From: a virus
Taxonomy: Duplodnaviria; Caudoviricetes
Direction: 5' to 3' (one strand)
DNA: 35,379 nucleotides
Virus record (IMG/VR): IMGVR_UViG_3300018068_000001
Location: 1-35,379 of that record
The notes beneath the pieces are model-generated. The model searched no databases. It was given only the letters and a program-made list of their open reading frames with translations, and had not been told where the DNA came from. Made by a program: the position numbers and the translations under genes. Positions 1-35,379 of this stretch are shown piece after piece; positions within the stretch are counted from its first letter, which is position 1; every line of letters begins with the position of its first letter.

Positions 1-60
1 ACCTGATATCCGCCATGGCATGATCTAATCTATCTATTTGCTTTTTTTGTTGAAGCCAAT
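1..60. repeat. Terminal direct repeat (circular assembly overlap), copy 1
   Basis: Identical to 35320-35379; the TnpB reading frame runs across the junction without a break. Confidence 0.97.
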
Positions 61-832
61 GTCCTGATTTTTTTTCAAACTTTTTACTGCCGATTTTACG
101 AGAAAGTCTTGTTTGAAGTATAGTTTTACGATCTTCTAATTTTTTTAATTTATCAGTATCTAATTGATAACCAGTTCCATCGGATAATGCTACAGTCTTG
201 ACTATCCCACGATTTATACCTACTGCCGGTAATGCTCTAATAGTGACATCTATGGTTTTTTCAACTAATATACAGACATACCAATATTCTCTTTCGTGTA
301 CTATAGATAGACTTATTATCTTATCCGCTGGATGCTCTAAATATGGCCTATCTATATCAATTCGGATCAGTGCTTCAATTTTTGGTAATTTCAAGTAATG
401 CCTACCCTGATCGTCCATATCTATACGAAAAATAGATTTAGGGAAATACAGTCTATGCAAATCACCTCTGTGTTTTTTTCTAGGATAACCTGGAGTTTCC
501 CCCTTCTTGACTCTTTTAAAAAAATTCGAAAAAGCTTTATCCAAATCTCTCAGAACTTCCTGCTGGGTACAACAGGGAAGAGCATTTAACCACTCATAAC
601 GTGCCCGTAAGATTGTCAGACGTTTAGCAGTACCTACTGTATTAATGCCATCTGGATGTTTAGTTCCAAAGTAACCCATAGATAATTTATACCGCTTGTA
701 TAAGCCACTCTTCAACCGCAGAGAACGATTCCATAGATACCTACATGCACATGACCACTGATATAGAGTACTGGCACATGTAGGTGATATCCTCAAGGGG
801 TACTTGTAAACTGTGGTGATCTGCTTTTCCAT
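1..832 (-). CDS. tnpB: TnpB-family RNA-guided protein, N-terminal part (405 aa in total across the origin); RuvC-I D->N, predicted nuclease-dead
   Basis: Manual translation from ATG at 832: MEKQITTVYKYPLRIS...CRYLWN...QQEVLRDLDKAFSNFFKRVKKGETPGYPRKK...LKLPKI...WYVCILVE...AVGINRGIVKTVALSDG. It is in frame with the 34934..35335 ORF. Absent from the ORF track because it crosses the window end. Confidence 0.93.
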   Translation of the reverse strand, partial: MEKQITTVYKYPLRISPTCASTLYQWSCACRYLWNRSLRLKSGLYKRYKLSMGYFGTKHPDGINTVGTAKRLTILRARYEWLNALPCCTQQEVLRDLDKAFSNFFKRVKKGETPGYPRKKHRGDLHRLYFPKSIFRIDMDDQGRHYLKLPKIEALIRIDIDRPYLEHPADKIISLSIVHEREYWYVCILVEKTIDVTIRALPAVGINRGIVKTVALSDGTGYQLDTDKLKKLEDRKTILQTRLSRKIGSKKFEKKSGHWLQQKKQIDRLDHAMADIR

Positions 833-6981: not shown

Positions 6982-8205
6982 TTATATCAAAGTCACACCT
7001 ATTCTAACTGCAGTCAGGGACTGATTGAGGATATAGGTTGTCCCCGTAGTATGTGGTTTGATTTGAAGCTCTATTGAAGAGCCAGCTTTAAGCTCCATGA
7101 ATCCTGATCCCATTATCTGTTGATAACCATTGTCAACATTATTAACTTGATATGATTGTAATAACAAGTATTCTGATGTGTCCGGATCATATCTACGTAC
7201 TCTTGTTTCTACTATGTCACTTCCGCCTGGTATAGCATTGGATGAAATAGATAGACTATAGTTGACCTGATAGAAACCTGCGTAGGTTGCAAATAACTTA
7301 TGTGATGCCACTGTAAAATTATATGTAAATTGCTCAAATAAATTATCTACTATCTGATACCAAGTTCCGCCAGTTAATCCTAGAGCATCTCCACTATGAT
7401 CAGACGGAGCTATGATATTCCCGCGACATAAATTAATACCCCCGCTGATCATTCCCGTGGCGTTAAGTGAGCCGTTCAATTCGAACCACCCAGCAAAGGT
7501 GTTTGTAAGTCTTGATGGTTCTTGATGTGATGCATCAACAAATATCGGTATCGATCCCGCTATCCCGGTACCACCTATTTGTGCTGGGGGAGTTAAACCT
7601 GTAGCACCCTGGATACCTTGAGCACCAGTTTGACCCTGGAGACCCTGGATGCCAGTTACTCCCTGTAGCCCCTGATTGCCCTGGATACCTGGATCTCCCT
7701 GGATACCCTGAGTACCTATTGCTCCCGTATTACCTTGACTACCTTGGATACCTGTTACTCCTGTATCACCTTGGGTACCCTGAATCCCTTGAGCCCCTGT
7801 ATCACCTTGTACTCCTGTTTGCCCTTGAATCCCCTGACTTCCCTGTAATCCTGTTATCCCATCAGGTCCTATGATAGATGCTCCTGTTTGACCCTGGGAA
7901 CCAGTTTGCCCTTGACCACCTTGTAATCCGGTTGTGCCTATAAGACCAGTGACACCCTGTATACCAGTTACTCCAGTACCTCCTGGTATCGATAGACCAG
8001 TTTCACCAGGCATACCCTGGATACCTGTCATCCCATATATCGCCATCTGATCTTCAGGAAGATACTTTTTGATGGTACCATCCGAAAATTTATGGATCAT
8101 TTTATCCGTATCACTGGCAAAACCTGATTGCTGATTCCTTAAAGCATAATATAATCCGGTTTCCCCCGTTTCAACTCGTATAACATCTGATAATATTATT
8201 GACAT
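6982..8205 (-). CDS. Collagen-like fibre protein with a C1q/TNF-like C-terminal head
   Basis: Gly-X-Y run, then a beta-rich C-terminus with AGFYQVNYSLS...MELKAGSSIELQI. Confidence 0.8.
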   Translation of the reverse strand: MSIILSDVIRVETGETGLYYALRNQQSGFASDTDKMIHKFSDGTIKKYLPEDQMAIYGMTGIQGMPGETGLSIPGGTGVTGIQGVTGLIGTTGLQGGQGQTGSQGQTGASIIGPDGITGLQGSQGIQGQTGVQGDTGAQGIQGTQGDTGVTGIQGSQGNTGAIGTQGIQGDPGIQGNQGLQGVTGIQGLQGQTGAQGIQGATGLTPPAQIGGTGIAGSIPIFVDASHQEPSRLTNTFAGWFELNGSLNATGMISGGINLCRGNIIAPSDHSGDALGLTGGTWYQIVDNLFEQFTYNFTVASHKLFATYAGFYQVNYSLSISSNAIPGGSDIVETRVRRYDPDTSEYLLLQSYQVNNVDNGYQQIMGSGFMELKAGSSIELQIKPHTTGTTYILNQSLTAVRIGVTLI

Positions 8206-11627: not shown

Positions 11628-12599
11628 TTACATCCATGATGCATTAAATTTTCCGTTATTTGTATCATCTACTATGGAATATTTGGTGATAGCATACCCA
11701 GATAATGAATCTGCTGATATATAGATATAATCTCCATCTACATAAGAGCCTACGTCAAAGTTAGTACTTCTTGGAAATATGTAAAGTGGTATAAAGTTGT
11801 ATTTATTGAAAAATATAAGATTGTATCTACTACCCATATCAGGGCTACATGATTTACCAACAAGATAATCTTTATATTTAGACATGAATGAAATGTTAAA
11901 ATCACCTGGTATGGAACATGGGAACTCTGCTATCTTATTAAATGATGATCCATTCCAATGTATAAGATCTATCCTATTCTCTATCCCTATAGGCATATCT
12001 TCATCTACAAGTGGTAGGTAGGGAAATCCTACTTTATTTGAATAACCTGCGGTATGATCATCTATTACATACTGAGCGAGCCATGTGAGTGTACTACCAG
12101 ATACTGACCAAGCATCAATATAGCAACCAAATCCAGAAGTGGTTTCTGATTTTGTCCAGAGTCTATCTCCTGATGGCATCATATAACCCCATAAGGCTCT
12201 TAAACCAAATGAGGTAGAGCTTATTACTGTACCTGTGTAATTATAAAATCTTATGTACCCAGAATCATACCCAAGAACATAAGACCCGTTGAGTGTGCAC
12301 ATATTGGATGAATTACCACGTGTTATAGAGTATATCTGAGAAACAATGGCACCATTAAAATGGGAAAATCTTAATATACAACTACTACCCACTACCCCAT
12401 CAGATTGGACAAAGTAATTATTATCCCAATAATGTGATTCTTTACTTGAGTATGGGCTGTACGCTACCCAATTCATGTTTAAATCATATATAGCTACTTG
12501 AGCATTCCAATTAGCACAATAAAAATAACCTCCAAATTTTGCTATATCATTAGATATATGATTGGTGCTATAGCTATGTGCTACCGAAGTAAGTATCAT
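11628..12599 (-). CDS. Hypothetical beta-rich (propeller-like) protein
   Basis: Aromatic/Ser-rich 323 aa in the tail module. Confidence 0.6.
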   Translation of the reverse strand: MILTSVAHSYSTNHISNDIAKFGGYFYCANWNAQVAIYDLNMNWVAYSPYSSKESHYWDNNYFVQSDGVVGSSCILRFSHFNGAIVSQIYSITRGNSSNMCTLNGSYVLGYDSGYIRFYNYTGTVISSTSFGLRALWGYMMPSGDRLWTKSETTSGFGCYIDAWSVSGSTLTWLAQYVIDDHTAGYSNKVGFPYLPLVDEDMPIGIENRIDLIHWNGSSFNKIAEFPCSIPGDFNISFMSKYKDYLVGKSCSPDMGSRYNLIFFNKYNFIPLYIFPRSTNFDVGSYVDGDYIYISADSLSGYAITKYSIVDDTNNGKFNASWM

Positions 12600-13438
12600 A
12601 TTATACTATACCCTATGTTAAGACTTAATCTATGCATACCAGTTACAGATACCAGATTAAATATTACTATATCTTCTGCTGACATAGATCTATTAGCCCA
12701 ATTGGTTATATCTGTATCACGATTTTTTACAGTGCCATTAAGTACCGCACCAGTCTCATTGTAATGCATAAGAGTTGCCCCAGGATATGTTGAGTAATTA
12801 GTCCTGCTTATATCGAATCGAGCATACCCACCGGTACTCCCAAAAATATTATACTTATAAACCTGAGATGTGACAGGGATAACGATCTGACCTTTGATTC
12901 CTGGAGTGAGAAGAGCTCCTCCTGCATCTACTATTATATTGATCATGCCAGTATAACTAGCGGTACCTCTCATCCCTGTTACTCCTTGTAGACCTGATGA
13001 TCCCTGGATACCTGTAACACCTTGAGAACCTACAGGACCAAGTGTACCTCGTAATCCTGTTAGACCTCTTAACCCAGTTATTCCTTGTAGCCCAGTTACT
13101 CCTTGTAATCCCTGAGCTCCCGTAACACCCATGGCTGCATATGCACCATCTAATCCTGTGGGACCTCTTAACCCAGTTGATCCCGGAGGACCACCAAATG
13201 CACCAGTTGTACCTTGGATACCAGTCTCACCTCCAAACGGAAGATCTACCCATGACATCCCGGTACCACCACATTGCATGATCTGACCAGTTGCTCCTGC
13301 AGTAGCCGGGAATGCATTATCATTGATATATAGATTAGTATCATCTACTGATATACTCACAGATCGATTATGCTTAGGAGTTATCCTGCGAGCATTGTAA
13401 GTTATATCAGCAAAATCTTTAAATTCCCAGACTGGCAT
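12596..13438 (-). CDS. Collagen-like virion protein
   Basis: Central Gly-X-Y repeats. Confidence 0.8.
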   Translation of the reverse strand: MPVWEFKDFADITYNARRITPKHNRSVSISVDDTNLYINDNAFPATAGATGQIMQCGGTGMSWVDLPFGGETGIQGTTGAFGGPPGSTGLRGPTGLDGAYAAMGVTGAQGLQGVTGLQGITGLRGLTGLRGTLGPVGSQGVTGIQGSSGLQGVTGMRGTASYTGMINIIVDAGGALLTPGIKGQIVIPVTSQVYKYNIFGSTGGYARFDISRTNYSTYPGATLMHYNETGAVLNGTVKNRDTDITNWANRSMSAEDIVIFNLVSVTGMHRLSLNIGYSII

Positions 13439-14124: not shown

Positions 14125-14730
14125 TTAATTAAGTTTAGTTACTCTCATGAAACCATTTGCGTATAATGTGGCTGCTTGCTTTACAACTAAGGTATAAGTT
14201 CCAGCACTGTTATTGTTTGCTATGAATCCACGAAAGTCAGAATAATCAAGAACGTTACTTGCTGATATATTACTTAATGTAGTAACTACTGACCCATAAC
14301 CTGTGGAGGATAATGAACTACCCCATGAAGAAGATATAGCTGGACCAGTAAATCCTGCAATTACCGCAGCACTTTCTCTTAGGCACAATTCAAAAGCATA
14401 AATACCATTTGCTACTGCACTAAATGAAAGATCTGATACTTGTTGGGCTGTTGTGGTAGAACTAAAATTTGAAGTAAGATATTTTATCTGAGTATTAGAA
14501 GCTAATCCACTCAATCCAGTATACCCCTGTACCCCAGTAACACCAGTAGACCCTATAATACCATCAATTCCTGTGACCCCTACTAATCCTGTCACCCCTT
14601 GTGCTCCTGTATACCCTTGGATCTCTTGAGATACTATTATCCATTTACCATCTGCTGCTACATACTTATAGACTGTACCTAGAGCATTTGTATAAAGCTG
14701 ATTATCGGAAGGACCGATCGGAAAAGACAT
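14125..14730 (-). CDS. Short collagen-like fibre protein
   Basis: N-terminal SFPIGPSDNQLYT...VYKY...W module, then G-X-T repeats. Confidence 0.75.
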   Translation of the reverse strand: MSFPIGPSDNQLYTNALGTVYKYVAADGKWIIVSQEIQGYTGAQGVTGLVGVTGIDGIIGSTGVTGVQGYTGLSGLASNTQIKYLTSNFSSTTTAQQVSDLSFSAVANGIYAFELCLRESAAVIAGFTGPAISSSWGSSLSSTGYGSVVTTLSNISASNVLDYSDFRGFIANNNSAGTYTLVVKQAATLYANGFMRVTKLN

Positions 14731-15457: not shown

Positions 15458-18046
15458 TTATCTCGATATACTTATAGTGAATGCTGCATCAGTAAACCCA
15501 TTAATACCTGTAAAATTCATGAATAATGAATTACCAGCGGATACTGTATTATTCCCAGAAGCATTAAAAGTCTGTTCAGTAGATGATGCCCATACTTTAT
15601 CTATAGATGTAATCGCTGTACTATCTATTTTACATGTCACCATTCCAGTACCTCCTGATGATTTTATTACTAAACTGGATATTGTATAGTTTGCCGGGGC
15701 ATATTGATCCAATGTATAAGTTTTATCTCTCGGTATTTCTATATGACCATTGATGGAATCTATAGTCACACCTCTTATACCTGTAGTTCCTTGTGATCCT
15801 TGAAGACCTGTGATCCCTTGAGATCCAGTTTGTCCTTGAGATCCGGTTTGTCCTTGAGACCCTGTAGATCCTATTAATCCAGTGACTCCTTGAGATCCAG
15901 TAGCACCTATTAACCCGGTGACTCCTTGAGATCCAGTAGCACCTATTAATCCTGTCACACCTTGTGCCCCAGTTCCTCCTATAAGACCAGTGATCCCTTG
16001 AAGACCAGTGATCCCTTGAGATCCAGTTTGTCCTTGAGATCCTGTTATCCCTATAAGACCCGTGATACCTTGGAATCCTGTAGGTCCTACCTTAGAGCCT
16101 GATGATATCTGTACCCAATTTCCATCTAATCCAGTGACAAAACCAAAGAATGCTTCATCCTGAAAATTCCACATGATAGCTGGTACTATCGTAGCATCTA
16201 CGAAAGACCCTTGTTCATAAAAGTTACCAAGACCCGTGATACCCTGAGAACCGGTTATTCCTTGTGACCCTGTATCTCCCTGAGATCCAGTAACACCAAT
16301 TAACCCGGTGATACCCTGAGATCCTGTTATCCCTATAAGACCCGTGATACCCTGAGATCCAGTTTGTCCTTGAGAACCTGTTTGTCCTTGAGACCCAGTA
16401 GTACCTATGAGACCAGTTATTCCTTGAGAGCCAGTGTCACCCTGAGATCCTGTTTGTCCTTGTGACCCTGTATCTCCCTGAGATCCAGTCGATCCTTCTA
16501 ATCCAGTAGCACCTTGTAGCCCAGTTTGACCCCGCAGTCCTATAGACCCTGTATCTCCCTGAGACCCTGTATCTCCCTGAGATCCAGTCACCCCATCTAA
16601 TCCGGTAGTACCTTGTAATCCTATAGACCCTGTATCTCCCTGAGATCCAGTTTCTCCTATGAGACCGGTGATACCAATGAGGCCAGTAATACCTTGAGAA
16701 CCTTGAGCACCTATTTGTCCTTGAGATCCAGTTTCCCCTTGATACCCTGTAGGACCCATTAATCCTGTATCCCCTGTACCAGTTTCTCCCTGAACACCAG
16801 TCATACCTCTTAAACCGGTAGCACCCTGTAGACCAGTAAATCCTACCATACCTGTGAGACCAAGTTGACCCGTGGGACCTGCCATACCTGTATCTCCTTG
16901 AGATCCAGTATCACCTTGAGACCCAGTAGATCCTTCTAACCCTGTAGTACCTTGAGCACCTGTTAGGCCTCTTGCCCCAGTTAGACCCTGAGATCCTGTG
17001 GTACCATGTAATCCTGTAACTCCTACGAGTCCTGTAATACCTTCTAACCCGGTGATACCTTGAGCACCAGTTTGTCCTATTAATCCTGTGATACCCTGAA
17101 ATCCTGTGAATCCTCTCATACCAGTCAAACCTAATTGACCAGTAGATCCCTGATTACCAGTTTCTCCCTGGGGACCTGCAAGACCATCTAATCCTGTGAA
17201 TCCTAATGACCCAGTTTCTCCTTGAAGACCCCGAGCCCCATTTTCTCCTATTATACCAGTTACTCCCTGAGATCCCTGTAATCCTGTAGATCCTACACCT
17301 GTGGCACCTTGTGACCCAGTAGACCCTTGTATCCCAGTTTGCCCTACAGAACCTGCAAGACCTGCTAATCCTGTCTGACCTTGAGAACCTGTGAGACCTT
17401 GGGACCCAGTATCTCCCTGGATGCCAGGTAATCCTATAATACCCGTCGCACCTTGTACCCCAGTATCCCCCATACCTGCGTATGATCCGGGGATACCTTG
17501 TACCCCAGTATCTCCTTGTACCCCAGTTTGACCCTGAGCACCTGCACCAGTCACACCTTGTACCCCAGTATCACCTTTTATGAGGGATTCATATGCTGCT
17601 CCAGTGATACCTGTATAATCTATAGGGTTACTGATCTTGATTATTATCTGGGGTGAAAACTGAGAAACAGATGCATCATTTATCTCATTTAGATAAAACT
17701 GAATGCCATAGTAATAACCGTGGACTGCTGTAGAAATAGAAGATGGATCCATCCTCCATGTTATCTGGATTCTTTTATCATCCAAAACTTTTGATGTATA
17801 AGTGAGTATCGAAGTAGTATATAACTCTGGAAGTACCTTACTCCATCTTAACTCATCTTCTGTAGGAGGCAGCACTCTATAAACTTGTGCAGTGAGCGTA
17901 TTGATGGTGATCAAGGTAGAAACTGATACAATGATCTCACCCTCTATGGTAGATCCTATATTAGTTTCTGCCAGAGGTACTTCACCTGAAAATGGCATCT
18001 TCTGCCCGTAGACAGTATAGCTTACTGGTTTGAAAATAACTGCCAT
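15458..18046 (-). CDS. Long collagen-like fibre protein
   Basis: Several hundred residues of G-X-T/G-X-Q triplets ([12 protein letters not shown]) with globular ends and one interruption. Confidence 0.9.
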
Positions 18047-30959: not shown

Positions 30960-33131
30960 TTAGAATCGTTCCCTACTTGCACGTACCTCAGTATAGGTCG
31001 AAGCCACTTGATAACTTAACGAAACAGCATCACAATTATGTACTAGAATATGATTAGCATAATACATATGTGCTTCTTCTACTTTTAGATTATAGACAAC
31101 TATATCATTTTTTAAATTTTGTATTTGTCCTATAAATGACATGACATTTTTTTCCACATGTCTTTCTTGGCACACCGTTGATTGCTGCTGGAGTAAATTT
31201 TTCTCCGCAAACAATGCACATAAATACTTTACCAATAGCCAGTATTTTATTATGGTATTTTTGATAACAATATCTACTACAACATGTAGTATCGGACCTA
31301 AATGATAAAAACTCTTTATTACATTCAGCGCATTTAATTTTTGTTTTTTTAACGTTGCCTTCTGCCCATGACTTTTTTGACTGTTTACTGTGCTGCTCTC
31401 TACCCTCTTTTGATGCATGCCAAGATTTTGTAAGATGTCTGATACTCTCAAGATGTTTTTTTTGTGCATCTGTGCATTTACCGATAGATAGCGAGTAATG
31501 TTGCATACTGTGTAACAGCTGTAGATTGCTGTACTCATTATTAGATCGATCCCCATCAATATGATGGATGATATAACCCTCTGGTATCTCAGTTTTATTA
31601 TGTTTTTGCCAAATGTACCTATGTAGTGCAGTAATATACCTTTTTTTGTTGATAGTTTTTTGATGGTAGAAATATCCTTTTCCGAGTCTAAAAAATTTGA
31701 GTCCATCATAAATAACGCTCTTGCTACTACCCATCTCAGTTGTTCCTTTAATGTAATTAAAAATACTGTGCTTTTATAGTACAATATATTAACTGCATCT
31801 AGGCGTATTGTAAGATTATCCCCTTTAGATATAATTGGGTGATTACCAGTACCAGTTAATCCTATGTTTGTTATTACCTTATCTACTTTATGATTTACTA
31901 TATTTTCTACTTTTTTAATCCCGAAGGGGGTTATAACCCAATCCCCTATCCTTAATGTTTCTATTGGTCTATCCCCATATGGGGTAGATATCATAGTGCC
32001 AGCAATAAAACATTGGTCATCGTGATCATGGCTCATATCCGTGGTAAACTCATTGCACTCATCCAGGAATACCCTATTCCACGGACCCTCTACGAGTGCT
32101 ACCTTGCCTAACTCTGCCCGGGTGATCCAAGGGATAGCTCTGTTTAACTTATCTCCCTCTGGTCTCACTGCCTTGATCACATAATTCCTTAGTTCCGGGT
32201 CCCTCTTGAGCTCATCGATAAATCCCTGCTGCTGCCCAGATGCTTCTATAACTATGATAGTAGATATCCCGTCACTCTTAGCTGTTTCTATGATACGTTT
32301 CCGGAGCTCTGGGAATTCGAGTTTAGCCCTAAAGATATTACCTATTACAAAAGTATCCCCCACCCACTGTGATAAAGCTCCTACTGAATAATCCGCTGAA
32401 AGCTTTATACTGACTGCTAAATCCCAAGCCCTCACTGCCTGAGTAAATCTTACTGGTTTGATTATCCGGAACCAAGCTTCTTGGATAGTACCTGCACCGA
32501 TTACTACGATATCCCCATCAAGTTCCTGCTGGGCAAACTTAGTGAAATACCTCTTACGTAGATCCTCCTCGTATCCTTTGGGGAGAAAAGCATTCTCAGA
32601 AGTTTTTTGGTGTATGATTTCTATTGTTGGGTCATCAGATACCTCTAGTGCATACACCCAGTTCTTTCCCTTAGGAGAACTTATAAGATGCCACTGACCA
32701 TCCTCACATTCACTCATACGCCCGATACATATCAAAAAAATGTCATCAGCTTTAAACTGCCGTGCCTCATCGATAAATACATCTGCTACTTCAAGTCCCC
32801 TGAGTGCATCAGGACTATCCCCCGATCTCAAAAAGATATAGGTACCCATAAGGACCACTATCATATCAGTGAGATTTATTGTGTAATGCTCATACTCTTT
32901 TAAACCATGTTCCTCTAACGTCTTCCTCAAGGTGATAAGTATGGTATCCTTGAGAGTCCGATAAGAAAAACTCACTATAAGTTGGGTCCTCTTTTGAAGA
33001 GCATTTCGTACTGCTTTGATACAGGCTACTTTTGATTTGCCTGATCGGATCCCTGCACGAAAGATGATACCCTTCTTTTTTGAACGCATAAATATGGTCT
33101 GCTTGGGATTAAGGGGGATATTGAGTATCAT
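30960..33131 (-). CDS. terL: Terminase large subunit containing an intein
   Basis: Walker A AGIRSGKS, Walker B VFIDEA, coupling motif SSPKG, nuclease AWDLA and HDDQ|CDA. Confidence 0.95.
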   Translation of the reverse strand: MILNIPLNPKQTIFMRSKKKGIIFRAGIRSGKSKVACIKAVRNALQKRTQLIVSFSYRTLKDTILITLRKTLEEHGLKEYEHYTINLTDMIVVLMGTYIFLRSGDSPDALRGLEVADVFIDEARQFKADDIFLICIGRMSECEDGQWHLISSPKGKNWVYALEVSDDPTIEIIHQKTSENAFLPKGYEEDLRKRYFTKFAQQELDGDIVVIGAGTIQEAWFRIIKPVRFTQAVRAWDLAVSIKLSADYSVGALSQWVGDTFVIGNIFRAKLEFPELRKRIIETAKSDGISTIIVIEASGQQQGFIDELKRDPELRNYVIKAVRPEGDKLNRAIPWITRAELGKVALVEGPWNRVFLDECNEFTTDMSHDHDDQCFIAGTMISTPYGDRPIETLRIGDWVITPFGIKKVENIVNHKVDKVITNIGLTGTGNHPIISKGDNLTIRLDAVNILYYKSTVFLITLKEQLRWVVARALFMMDSNFLDSEKDISTIKKLSTKKGILLHYIGTFGKNIIKLRYQRVISSIILMGIDLIMSTAIYSCYTVCNITRYLSVNAQMHKKNILRVSDILQNLGMHQKRVESSTVNSQKSHGQKATLKKQKLNALNVIKSFYHLGPILHVVVDIVIKNTIIKYWLLVKYLCALFAEKNLLQQQSTVCQERHVEKNVMSFIGQIQNLKNDIVVYNLKVEEAHMYYANHILVHNCDAVSLSYQVASTYTEVRASRERF
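31035..32012 (-). mobile_element. Intein (326 aa) in TerL
   Basis: Starts CFIAGTMISTPYGDRPIETLRIGDWV, has block B TGNHP, ends VYNLKVEEAHMYYANHILVHN followed by Cys+1. Confidence 0.93.
31105..31734 (-). CDS. HNH endonuclease with C-terminal Cys4 zinc-ribbon repeats, nested out of frame within the intein
   Basis: LHRYIW...IIHHIDGDRSNNEYSNLQLL...H; CAEC..CCSRYC..CIVC..TCGKKC; own AAGGA RBS. Confidence 0.88.
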   Translation of the reverse strand: MGSSKSVIYDGLKFFRLGKGYFYHQKTINKKRYITALHRYIWQKHNKTEIPEGYIIHHIDGDRSNNEYSNLQLLHSMQHYSLSIGKCTDAQKKHLESIRHLTKSWHASKEGREQHSKQSKKSWAEGNVKKTKIKCAECNKEFLSFRSDTTCCSRYCYQKYHNKILAIGKVFMCIVCGEKFTPAAINGVPRKTCGKKCHVIYRTNTKFKK

Positions 33132-33811: not shown

Positions 33812-34300
33812 TTAAGTAGACTGGTATTTAGCCCACTGTACTCTGAGCTTTTTACGATAAAAGCTTACTCCTGACTTTGTCATGGAATGATCTTTTGCTA
33901 TGGTACTTTTATCCTTATCCTCTATAAGATCTTTTGCGATGGCTTTGTCCATACCTGTAAGTCCCATTATAAACGTTTGAAGATCTATGGTAGAACCTTC
34001 TCCAGAAATGGTGGGGGGTAATAGATCATCTGATATCTGTACTGTGATGTGTATTTTTTTTGCGTGATATCTATCATATATAAAATTTTTTATACTCTGG
34101 TATAGGTAAGTATCAAAGGAGGACTTTTGAGGATCATATCGTAGTAATAGATTATTATTTTTTATTTTTATATAGAAATCTGAGATGATCCCAGAAATTT
34201 CTTCTGCTGCTATTCTTTTCTTTATGATAAAAATACAGCATCTGGTTAGTTGATCATAATTTTTTACGATAAATTCATCTGGGCACTTTGATGGGATCAT
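33812..34300 (-). CDS. Sigma-70 family (ECF-sized) sigma-factor-like protein, 162 aa
   Basis: Region-2-like RYDPQKSSFDTYLYQSIKNFIYD and region-4-like STIAKDHSMTKSGVSFYRKKL. Start set at ATG 34300 because the upstream in-frame codons are CRISPR repeats. Confidence 0.75.
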   Translation of the reverse strand: MIPSKCPDEFIVKNYDQLTRCCIFIIKKRIAAEEISGIISDFYIKIKNNNLLLRYDPQKSSFDTYLYQSIKNFIYDRYHAKKIHITVQISDDLLPPTISGEGSTIDLQTFIMGLTGMDKAIAKDLIEDKDKSTIAKDHSMTKSGVSFYRKKLRVQWAKYQST

Positions 34301-34318
34301 ATATAACAATATAACATA

Positions 34319-34797
34319 TGATTCATCTCCATGTGTGTGAGGAATATTTTGATAGTTTTCTGGTTCATCCCCGCGTGTGTGGGGAACATTACTGCAATAT
34401 ACCCGGTTCATCCCCGCGTGTGTGGGAGACACATTTAATTTTTAAATGTATATTAAAAGTGTTCGGTTCATCCCCGCGTGTATAGGGAGCACTACATAAG
34501 GAGGTTCATCCCCGCGTGTGTGGAGAACACCAATTAATTCAAACAATAGTATCAGTTTTACAAGGTTCATCCCCGCGTGTGTGGGGAACACAAAAAGATC
34601 AAATCCTGAATCGGTGGGAAAAGCGGTTCATCCTCGCGTGTGTGGGGAACACTTTGTGGATAGTAAACCCATATAATAAATGACCGGTTCATCCCCGCAT
34701 GCGTGGAGAACACACCATGATTTAGTGCATCTATAATGTTTTTGTACTGTATACTGTACCACTATAGACGGTTCATCCCCGCGTGTGTGGGGAACAC
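34319..34797 (-). CRISPR. CRISPR array, 9 repeats of 29 bp (consensus GTGTTCCCCACACACGCGGGGATGAACCG), type I-E-like
   Basis: Repeats start (+ coordinates) at 34319 (degenerate, 8 transitions), 34361, 34404, 34464, 34502, 34563, 34624, 34685 and 34769. Spacers are 13, 14, 31, 9, 32, 32, 32 and 55 nt. Close to the E. coli I-E repeat GTGTTCCCCGCGCCAGCGGGGATAAACCG. Confidence 0.95.
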
Positions 34798-34835
34798 TTT
34801 GTGGATAACTGGTACCCACACAACTGTCAAAGAAC

Positions 34836-34923
34836 GTGTTCTCTACATACGCGAGACATTTCCCACTTCACAGACCCAGTTACCCGGCATCTCCATGGGC
34901 ACACCCCGGCGAACCTGCCGGTG
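34836..34923 (-). ncRNA. omegaRNA-derived, tracrRNA-like scaffold with anti-repeat
   Basis: Immediately 3' of the tnpB stop: hairpin CCGGC-AGGTTC-GCCGG, then GCCCATGGAGA...TCTGTGAAGTGGGAA (IS200/IS605 omegaRNA-like), then TCTCGCGTATGTAGAGAACAC, complementary to the repeat. Confidence 0.75.
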
Positions 34924-34933
34924 AATTTTTCTA

Positions 34934-35379
34934 TTATCTGTGCAGCATATTTAGTGCTGCGTTAGTATCCATGTTTTTTATAAACCCACATTTGGCACAT
35001 TTAAATCTTCTATATTTCTCATAAATATTCTCAGGTCCAGTATGCCCACAAGAGCTACATTCCTGGGTTATATAGGGGACTGATTTTTTAGTGACTGTAT
35101 GTCCTAATCTGTTCGATTTGTATTCCAGCATAATCCCTAATTGTCCCCATCCCTGTCGTAATTGTGCCCTGTTAAAATTAATTTTAATCTGGACATCAGT
35201 ACCTGGCTGTTCAATGGTGCCCTTAGCTGATTTAGTCATCTGCTTTATTTTATAATCTTCTATTGAAATATCCCCATAATGGGAAACTATGTGCCGTGAT
35301 GTCTGATGATTGAAGTTTAACCTGATATCCGCCATGGCATGATCTAATCTATCTATTTGCTTTTTTTGTTGAAGCCAAT
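34934..35379 (-). CDS. tnpB: TnpB-family protein, C-terminal part (RuvC-II, zinc ribbon, RuvC-III)
   Basis: ISIEDY (RuvC-II E298), MTKSAKGT, GWGQLGIMLEYK, ITQECSSCG..FKCAKCG, NMDTNAALN (RuvC-III D395). Confidence 0.95.
   Translation of the reverse strand, partial: WLQQKKQIDRLDHAMADIRLNFNHQTSRHIVSHYGDISIEDYKIKQMTKSAKGTIEQPGTDVQIKINFNRAQLRQGWGQLGIMLEYKSNRLGHTVTKKSVPYITQECSSCGHTGPENIYEKYRRFKCAKCGFIKNMDTNAALNMLHR
35320..35379. repeat. Terminal direct repeat, copy 2
   Basis: Identical to 1-60. Confidence 0.97.

Follow-up and report, generated by a model that had tools for sequence, protein, structure and literature searches.

A phage TnpB-like protein with asparagine at RuvC-I beside a split omegaRNA-like scaffold and a type I-E-like CRISPR array: a candidate tracrRNA-dependent type V system

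The locus and its effector protein

The window analysed here is the whole IMG/VR virus record IMGVR_UViG_3300018068_000001 (35,379 nt; Duplodnaviria, Caudoviricetes), a phage genome in which a tnpB-like gene, a structured RNA and a CRISPR array follow one another on the minus strand. The record ends in a 60-nt direct repeat, positions 35320-35379 duplicating 1-60, and is listed as a virus with direct terminal repeats and a completeness of 100, that is, a complete 35-kb phage. A minus-strand frame running across the joined ends from 832 to 34934 encodes a TnpB of 405 aa. On the 3' side of its stop codon lie a scaffold of about 100 nt, a 38-nt linker and nine 29-nt repeats, the gap between stop codon and first repeat being 136 nt. 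The original prediction had described this layout, which was borne out and extended by an anti-repeat in the scaffold that had not been named before. A contig of sequencing run X1, which may be the sample of origin, matches phage positions 33700-34872 with 0 differences. The four runs containing at least half of the sampled phage words are all labelled sediment metagenomes, and no RNA dataset occurred among the sequencing runs listed as containing phage words. The features, all on the minus strand, are as follows.

1..832, tnpB-derived effector, residues 1-277: REC/WED and RuvC-I, with N207-R208 replacing the catalytic Asp
34934..35379, C-terminal part of the effector: RuvC-II E298, C4 zinc finger, RuvC-III D395 and stop codon
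34906..34921, 5' hairpin of the scaffold: GTTC loop, the predicted pseudoknot partner of the repeat end; in-frame PAGSPG
34860..34900, omegaRNA core, with an inner hairpin (34887-34876) carrying a GUAA loop
34836..34856, anti-repeat against repeat nt 1-21, located where the terminal omegaRNA hairpin would have its 5' arm
34798..34835, 38-nt linker, the second half of which forms a hairpin of its own
34319..34797, CRISPR array of nine type I-E-like 29-nt repeats, decaying towards 34319
34714..34768, first 'spacer' (55 nt), self-complementary; probably it belongs to a leader of about 87 nt that repeat 1 interrupts
34592..34623, 32-nt spacer 3, with a matching foreign contig in run X1; AAG precedes the match on the crRNA-sense strand
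33812..34297, sigma-70/extracytoplasmic function (ECF)-like open reading frame (ORF) directly past the array, a neighbour without evidence of membership in the system

The two halves of the window protein match the Pfam families PF12323, PF01385 and PF07282. The homologue P0002, which is 74% identical to its N-terminal part, scores 210 bits against NF040570 (cut-off 100), and an alignment of P0002 places the catalytic positions on the motifs of ISDra2 TnpB, the triad of which is D191/E278/D361 (PMC13639567). In the window protein the RuvC triad reads N-E-D, with N207 (codon 214-212), E298 (35260-35258) and D395 (34969-34967). The predicted structure of P0002, with a predicted local distance difference test (pLDDT) score of 73, is best matched by TnpB structures (Foldseek, 8iaz and 8h1j). 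Against curated profiles P0002 reached 50.6 bits for Cas12f2 (cut-off 450) and 114 bits for C2c8 (cut-off 350), below both thresholds. The PADLOC hits to Cas12f and Cas12u4 concern profiles that carry no cut-off, and the Cas12u1 profile matched the C-terminal part of P0002 only (E 5e-13). Among the best 15 of 323 rows from annotated phages there was no protein match to the window effector above 30% identity.

Searching with residues 1-277 gave 69 proteins. For 29 of these E was ≤1e-54 (43-92% identity), and the next stood at 1e-16. A profile search of 1.8 billion representatives gave four family clusters followed by a drop from 527 to 329 bits, and the family, which contains both intact and altered proteins, amounts to four clusters at 50% identity. 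The alignment included 28 of the 29 close homologues, a 256-aa fragment being left out. At RuvC-I it contains Asn-Arg in 15 proteins and Asp in 13, while the RuvC-II Glu is present in 28/28 and the RuvC-III Asp in 27/28. P0002, P0007, P0012, P0015 and P0020 are among the Asn proteins, P0011, P0027 and P0029 among those with Asp. N207-R208 occurs in 15/15 members of its clade, in which E298, D395 and the four zinc cysteines are invariant. The same clade has a specific extra acidic residue, D270, that by eye aligns with a helix position outside the motifs of ISDra2 TnpB.

The original prediction had proposed a phylogeny and a survey of homologues for the same scaffold-plus-array layout. A quick tree was built from 72 rows, namely the window protein and those proteins among P0001-P0075 that have at least 310 aa. 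Its 21 Asn rows form a single branch, nested inside the Asp-bearing family, with a support of 99 in the Shimodaira-Hasegawa-like approximate likelihood ratio test (SH-aLRT). Since the Asn rows are monophyletic and nested among Asp members, the D-to-N change arose once. It is retained across members 55-77% identical to P0002, and as far as sequences can tell the altered RuvC-I residue is conserved and not decaying. The D191A substitution impairs TnpB (PMC13639567), and Cas12m proteins with N-D-D triads bind double-stranded DNA and do not cut it (PMC11013384). By analogy the N-E-D protein has likely lost cutting activity. The label 'nuclease-dead' rests on one substitution, because only one of the three triad residues is changed.

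Six-frame searches of the complete phage found no match to Cas1, Cas2e, Cas6e or Cas7e; in the 14 control genomes these searches gave matches in 7, 1, 1 and 1 genomes, respectively. Y1 TnpA (PF01797), resolvase (PF00239) and tyrosine integrase were likewise without a match in six frames of the phage, with matches in 6, 12 and 14 of the control genomes. Pfam (30 ORFs) and PADLOC (16 window ORFs and 2 homologues) gave no further cas match, and no search was aimed at Cas3. Within that range of searches the earlier statement that cas and tnpA genes are not recognisable held.

Scaffold RNA, CRISPR array and spacer target

Among the 237 tnpB loci fetched there were 31 places with a core motif of omegaRNA. 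In ordinary tnpB loci a hairpin precedes the core, and a terminal hairpin and a short end follow it. At 13 of the 31 places with core and upstream hairpin, a script found that the loop tetramer has its complement two bases ahead of the presumed guide; in 2000 shuffles the mean was 3.3 and the highest count 9. The 13 loci represent three different tetramer pairs and many are near kin. The GTTC loop of the phage scaffold and the repeat end GAAC-CG stand in the same pseudoknot register, and GAAC plus two bases ends every repeat of the array except the last. Since the repeat end mirrors the register of the omegaRNA end, the repeat end can replace it, and the guide would then start at spacer base 1. 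The stretch of the terminal hairpin has a folding energy of 0.0 kcal/mol in cis in the window versus −8 to −20 kcal/mol in the 13 ordinary loci.

The anti-repeat at 34836-34856 is an inverted, diverged copy of the repeat, with 16 Watson-Crick pairs, 2 G-U pairs and 3 A-C oppositions over 21 nt. It is identical to the repeat at 16/21 positions (binomial 1.2e-6 per site; runner-up site outside the array 14/21). The duplex of anti-repeat and repeat has an energy of −22.4 kcal/mol, and in cofolding the anti-repeat paired with the repeat in all 4 pairs tried of trans-activating CRISPR RNA (tracrRNA) and CRISPR RNA (crRNA). From sequence and folding, the scaffold retains the omegaRNA core and is without a terminal hairpin of its own, and anti-repeat and repeat nt 1-21 can rebuild the stem. 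The coupling of a TnpB scaffold to the repeat that was originally proposed is thus supported by the anti-repeat, the pseudoknot register and the lost cis hairpin.

In related contigs the GUAA-capped hairpin shows compensatory changes from C-G to U-A and from G-U to G-C (4/4 runs), which are probably single events. In frame, the 5' hairpin reads PAGSPG, a motif found near the C-terminus of 18/28 homologues and of 0/146 outgroup proteins; because it recurs in this way the 5' hairpin of the scaffold is probably family-wide. P0008, P0010, P0011 and P0017 end in P[AV]GLP. The first 8-11 nt of the linker are retained in related contigs and can fold back on the anti-repeat. An Rfam search of the locus gave no meaningful match. 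On the plus strand the site of the 5' hairpin (34906-34929) also has the score of an intrinsic terminator, of which shuffled sequence gives 0.8. Transcription from the plus strand was rejected in spite of the better pairing there, since the minus strand is indicated by the I-E orientation, the AAG and the decay of the repeats, along with the omegaRNA core and its GUAA loop.

The nine minus-strand repeats lie at 34769, 34685, 34624, 34563, 34502, 34464, 34404, 34361 and 34319 and enclose spacers of 55, 32, 32, 32, 9, 31, 14 and 13 nt, in this order. The repeat is 27/29 and 26/29 identical, on the same strand, to arrays directly behind cas1e-cas2e of type I-E operons, in both of which all spacers are 32 nt. 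These two arrays were the best plasmid matches examined, from 2 of 48 records. Repeat identity and orientation are, judged by sequence, those of type I-E, the type named in the original prediction. All nine window repeats carry A10 instead of G10. The substitution breaks one hairpin pair, pairs with the anti-repeat and weakens the I-E repeat hairpin (−9.0 vs −14.3 kcal/mol). G10 is retained in the I-E repeats of 6 IMG/VR loci without tnpB, and exact repeat 1 was not found in GTDB genomes. Four IMG/VR loci (L239, L241, L243 and L244) are type I-E mini-arrays of two or three repeats whose fetched flanks contain no tnpB.

What stands as the 55-nt first spacer probably belongs to the leader. Contigs of runs X4 and X5 have an additional repeat at 34720 and, between 34720 and 34870, a gap of 30 nt, which may mean that repeat 1 went into the leader of about 87 nt, beside a 10-mer that also occurs at the end of spacer 2. 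A reading of this 10-mer as a DnaA box was dropped, as it is a hairpin arm in the linker and the guide-distal end in the spacer. Speculatively, the guide of repeat 1 could match this leader in sibling strains where it lacks the repeat. Spacer content varies among strains.

As to the layout in relatives, at least one other contig (X1 record 2 / X5 record 29) has the anti-repeat, about 87 nt and then a repeat. At least three other sediment loci carry the scaffold (34819-34923) with different flanks on either side, and other arrays with near-identical repeats are present at high depth in these sediment samples. Protein scans of IMG/VR for loci of close homologues gave distant TnpBs only. A family DNA pattern that matches the window and L093 gave 0 hits in IMG/VR, a GTDB scan for close homologue loci gave 0 and a metagenome scan gave at least one close locus, the partial L093. 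The single match of a scaffold pattern scan, L238, is unrelated. A separate IMG/VR locus (L230:4980-6450) encodes an unrelated 396-aa TnpB with an intact D-E-D triad beside an omegaRNA-like core and four repeats spaced 62-63 nt. The AAAC of its 5' loop complements the repeat end GTTT-GG in the register seen in the phage scaffold, and no clear anti-repeat was seen there by eye. From its sequence L230 looks like an independent TranC-like phage locus.

For spacer 3, run X1 shows two long loose ends, one at 34590 and one at 34624, and the depth in both bins is raised by about 7; together these indicate one foreign contig matching this spacer. AAG precedes the protospacer on the crRNA-sense strand, its G matching the last repeat base. 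AAG is the type I-E protospacer-adjacent motif (PAM; 10.64898/2026.04.20.719267) and was observed at one protospacer here (n = 1). Spacer 3 with the last repeat base (34592-34624) reads AFPTDSGFDLF in a frame that by eye is open through the flanks. The target has the look of foreign coding sequence and not of a promoter. By eye it resembles the first motif of a trimeric dUTPase and reads as the start of a putative gene of this kind. The crRNA of spacer 3 would be sense to this candidate dUTPase gene. There is no dUTPase in the phage itself, and no spacer matches the phage's own genome (best 9 mismatches of 32). Annotated phages yielded no spacer target beyond an 84%, 43-nt match at E 0.05, and the 20 of 48 plasmid rows listed contained repeat matches only and no spacer target.

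Proposed mechanism and competing explanations

The reading that we consider probable is that the N-E-D TnpB, the split omegaRNA and the I-E array of this phage form a TranC-like type V system that depends on a tracrRNA, is likely nuclease-dead, binds DNA of foreign origin and needs type I-E Cas1-Cas2 from the host. The tnpB gene, scaffold and array would be transcribed from the minus strand, the scaffold serving as tracrRNA and the repeat-spacer units as crRNAs after trimming by host RNases. Pairing of the anti-repeat with repeat nt 1-21 would rebuild the omegaRNA stem, and GAAC-CG would close the pseudoknot with the scaffold loop, the guide beginning at spacer base 1. The protein would read a short A-rich 5' motif (AAG-like) and pair some 16-20 nt of the spacer with DNA. 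With Asn at RuvC-I it would not cut and would act as a roadblock on DNA like Cas12m. New 32-nt spacers would be written by host Cas1-Cas2, a role already suggested in the original prediction and supported, at the sequence level, by the 32-nt spacers and the AAG before one protospacer. The repeat would keep its I-E form because the host enzymes acquire the spacers. Such a system would most likely serve in interference against competing phages, or against other mobile DNA, within the same host. The locus had been called a regulator; 'non-cutting interference module' fits better, as the one target seen reads as foreign coding sequence, not as a promoter, and the phage itself is matched by none of the spacers.

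Several observations weigh against this reading. Half of the spacers are odd-sized (55, 9, 14 and 13 nt), and one X5 contig has G10 in repeat 5. The anti-repeat duplex contains three A-C mismatches, the opposite strand pairs better (−31.0 vs −22.4 kcal/mol), and 8 genome windows elsewhere have a lower duplex energy, so that the anti-repeat ranks ninth. A single protospacer was seen, for which we infer the identity level, the owner and the presence of both flanks on one contig. A 9.6-kb contig (X1 record 4) has the anti-repeat and no joint to a repeat among the matches listed. The IMG/VR, metagenome and GTDB scans gave no downstream region of any named homologue. For the protein, one of three catalytic residues is changed and E298 and D395 are invariant in the N207-R208 clade. 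Conserved single triad changes can reflect a rearranged active site (PMC10691335), and the search that defined TldRs demanded at least two lost triad residues on that account (10.1101/2023.11.30.569447).

Some alternatives concern the class 1 machinery of the host. An unlikely form is that of a class 1 parasite. The anti-repeat would open the Cas6e hairpin of phage or host I-E pre-crRNA and reroute the RNA to the 405-aa non-cutting binder, giving an RNA-guided anti-CRISPR and a self-updating repressor at once, with array-less relatives using host crRNAs. We give a slightly lower chance to a capture purely in trans, in which the dead protein and its tracr-like RNA take up host I-E pre-crRNAs, keep these from Cascade as an RNA-guided anti-CRISPR and perhaps use them to guide a harmless binder. 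Cas6e cuts 8 nt from the repeat end, and the anti-repeat spans repeat nt 1-21, the hairpin part that Cas6e reads; a G10 repeat would still pair with it, as G-U. The 9.6-kb scaffold-bearing contig with no repeat among the matches listed and the depth of near-identical repeats from other arrays in the same samples are also in line with capture in trans. Against it, the array kept by the phage is its own, shows turnover and has a foreign target.

About equally improbable is an ordinary phage mini-array feeding host Cascade and Cas3, with tnpB and scaffold a relic or a separate entity. The repeat, the 32-nt spacers and the AAG are as compatible with I-E interference as with acquisition, IMG/VR contains phage I-E mini-arrays without tnpB, and phage mini-arrays target related viruses (PMC11656645). 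Such an array would not explain why the anti-repeat exactly replaces the lost hairpin arm and the pseudoknot loop is matched, nor the hairpin-weakening A10 in 9/9 repeats of a sequence absent from GTDB in its exact form, and it has nine repeats versus two or three.

We regard it as quite improbable that the protein still cuts or nicks with a rearranged or partly active RuvC site, as an active phage TranC like CauTranC9 or an analogue of Cas12r. The invariance of E298 and D395 in 15/15 proteins, the extra clade-specific acid D270 and the frequency of rearranged sites (PMC10691335) would fit such activity; the position of D270 outside the ISDra2 TnpB motifs (alignment by eye), the impairment of TnpB by D191A (PMC13639567) and the non-cutting N-first Cas12m proteins (PMC11013384) argue against it. 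A TldR-like one-piece guide is very improbable. The anti-repeat end GAAC-AC would close the pseudoknot in cis and the linker start, which contains a TTGACA hexamer, would guide promoter repression, the array being incidental. This cis end does fit the tetramer-plus-two register and relatives retain the first 8-11 linker bases, but no cis hairpin precedes GAAC-AC (0.0 vs −8 to −20 kcal/mol), the retained bases fold back on the anti-repeat and the phage has no linker-start target beyond 8-nt matches. Recruitment of the adjacent sigma-like protein by the dead effector, activating transcription as dCas12f does with sigma-E (PMC13472631, PMC10691335), is hardly credible in spite of the ORF lying about 20 nt past the last repeat, as the sigma-like ORF has one homologue besides itself versus 29 for TnpB. 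A sigma-like gene before terS is a plausible late-gene regulator.

In the phage, the sigma-70/ECF-like ORF is followed by terS and terL, and the module heads the late-gene strand. The large terminase (30960-33131) has an intein-like insert, and an HNH ORF (31105-31734) overlaps it in another frame on the same strand. A non-coding gap at 1928-2117, with 11-nt tandem repeats and a 34-nt direct repeat, is a candidate replication origin. The main repeat families of the phage are explained by four collagen-like (Gly-X-Y) tail proteins (6982-8205, 12596-13438, 14125-14730 and 15458-18046).

The locus gives the impression of a transposon RNA caught while its base pairs are rewired one by one so that it accepts a class 1 repeat. 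The presence of intact and altered proteins in one small family makes the order of array capture and loss of cutting testable. If the favoured reading is true, spacer acquisition in trans would extend to a tracr-dependent effector, and binding at a three-base PAM would make the protein a natural 405-aa scaffold for CRISPR interference (CRISPRi). If host crRNAs are also diverted, this would be a new kind of counter-defence.

Comparison with known systems

Cas12r of the Thermus Lalka phages is a phage TnpB-like effector without adaptation genes, with host I-E Cas1-Cas2 as the proposed spacer source (10.64898/2026.04.20.719267). Cas12r and this locus have in common that they are phage-encoded, with 29-bp I-E-like repeats and spacers of 32-33 nt (here three of 32 nt); for the A-rich PAM of Cas12r the AAG seen here (n = 1) is a candidate counterpart. 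Cas12r has 564 aa, RuvC-dependent interference and no tracrRNA, whereas the present system has 405 aa, Asn at RuvC-I and an anti-repeat scaffold. Borrowing of an I-E repeat by a phage TnpB is not new, because it has been described for Cas12r (10.64898/2026.04.20.719267).

Cas12m (V-M) is a natural non-cutting effector, N-first triads included, that blocks mobile DNA by binding (PMC11013384). It has about 600 aa, a Roof insertion and a self-processed crRNA only, in contrast to the TnpB-sized protein of 405 aa and its predicted tracrRNA need; Foldseek gave TMt values of 0.38-0.46 between Cas12m structures and the P0002 model. TldRs are nuclease-dead TnpBs without tnpA, some of them phage-borne, with the guide RNA downstream (10.1101/2023.11.30.569447; PMC13622181). 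They have one fixed promoter guide and neither array nor spacer acquisition, unlike the array with variable spacers seen here and its one observed target, which reads as coding sequence. The TldR search rule of at least two lost triad residues leaves out this protein (1/3), and some TldRs have a single triad change (10.1101/2023.11.30.569447). P0002 stays below the curated cut-offs for Cas12f and V-U2 (C2c8).

Fold, size, RNA core and pseudoknot register are shared with IS200/IS605 TnpB and its omegaRNA (ISDra2, ISFba1), from which the locus differs in lacking tnpA and a self-contained right-end hairpin, in its RuvC-I Asn and in the array downstream. With type I-E CRISPR it shares the sequence, length and orientation of the repeat and the spacer length, but no genes for Cascade, Cas6e or Cas1-Cas2 were found.

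About 50 independent associations of TnpB with arrays have been inferred in print (PMC10691335, PMC12669027). The available parts of the literature, including PMC12607003, PMC11656645, PMC13622181 and 10.64898/2026.09.14.751636, contain no system that unites an altered triad with an I-E repeat and with an anti-repeat derived from omegaRNA; the family could be listed in Al-Shayeb et al. 2022, Jin et al. 2025, Tordoff et al. 2025 or the supplements. In TranC (LaTranC, phage CauTranC9) the right-end RNA is split into tracrRNA and crRNA and there are no accessory cas genes (PMC13639567, 10.64898/2026.03.27.714800). TranC and the phage locus have in common a TnpB-sized protein beside an array, and one TranC member is phage-borne. 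The RNA split of TranC is predicted here from sequence and folding. LaTranC itself is a distant match (E 7e-4; 13-15% identity). Characterised TranCs are active nucleases with 32-38-bp repeats mostly of unknown subtype, whereas the phage locus combines a 29-nt class 1 repeat with N-E-D. Judged by sequence, the locus is one that would act like TranC with a Cas12m-type outcome, and it departs from Cas12r, Cas12m, Cas12f and TldR in features that were tested. What is new here is the reading of the scaffold as a split omegaRNA in which the terminal hairpin is replaced by a 21-nt anti-repeat.

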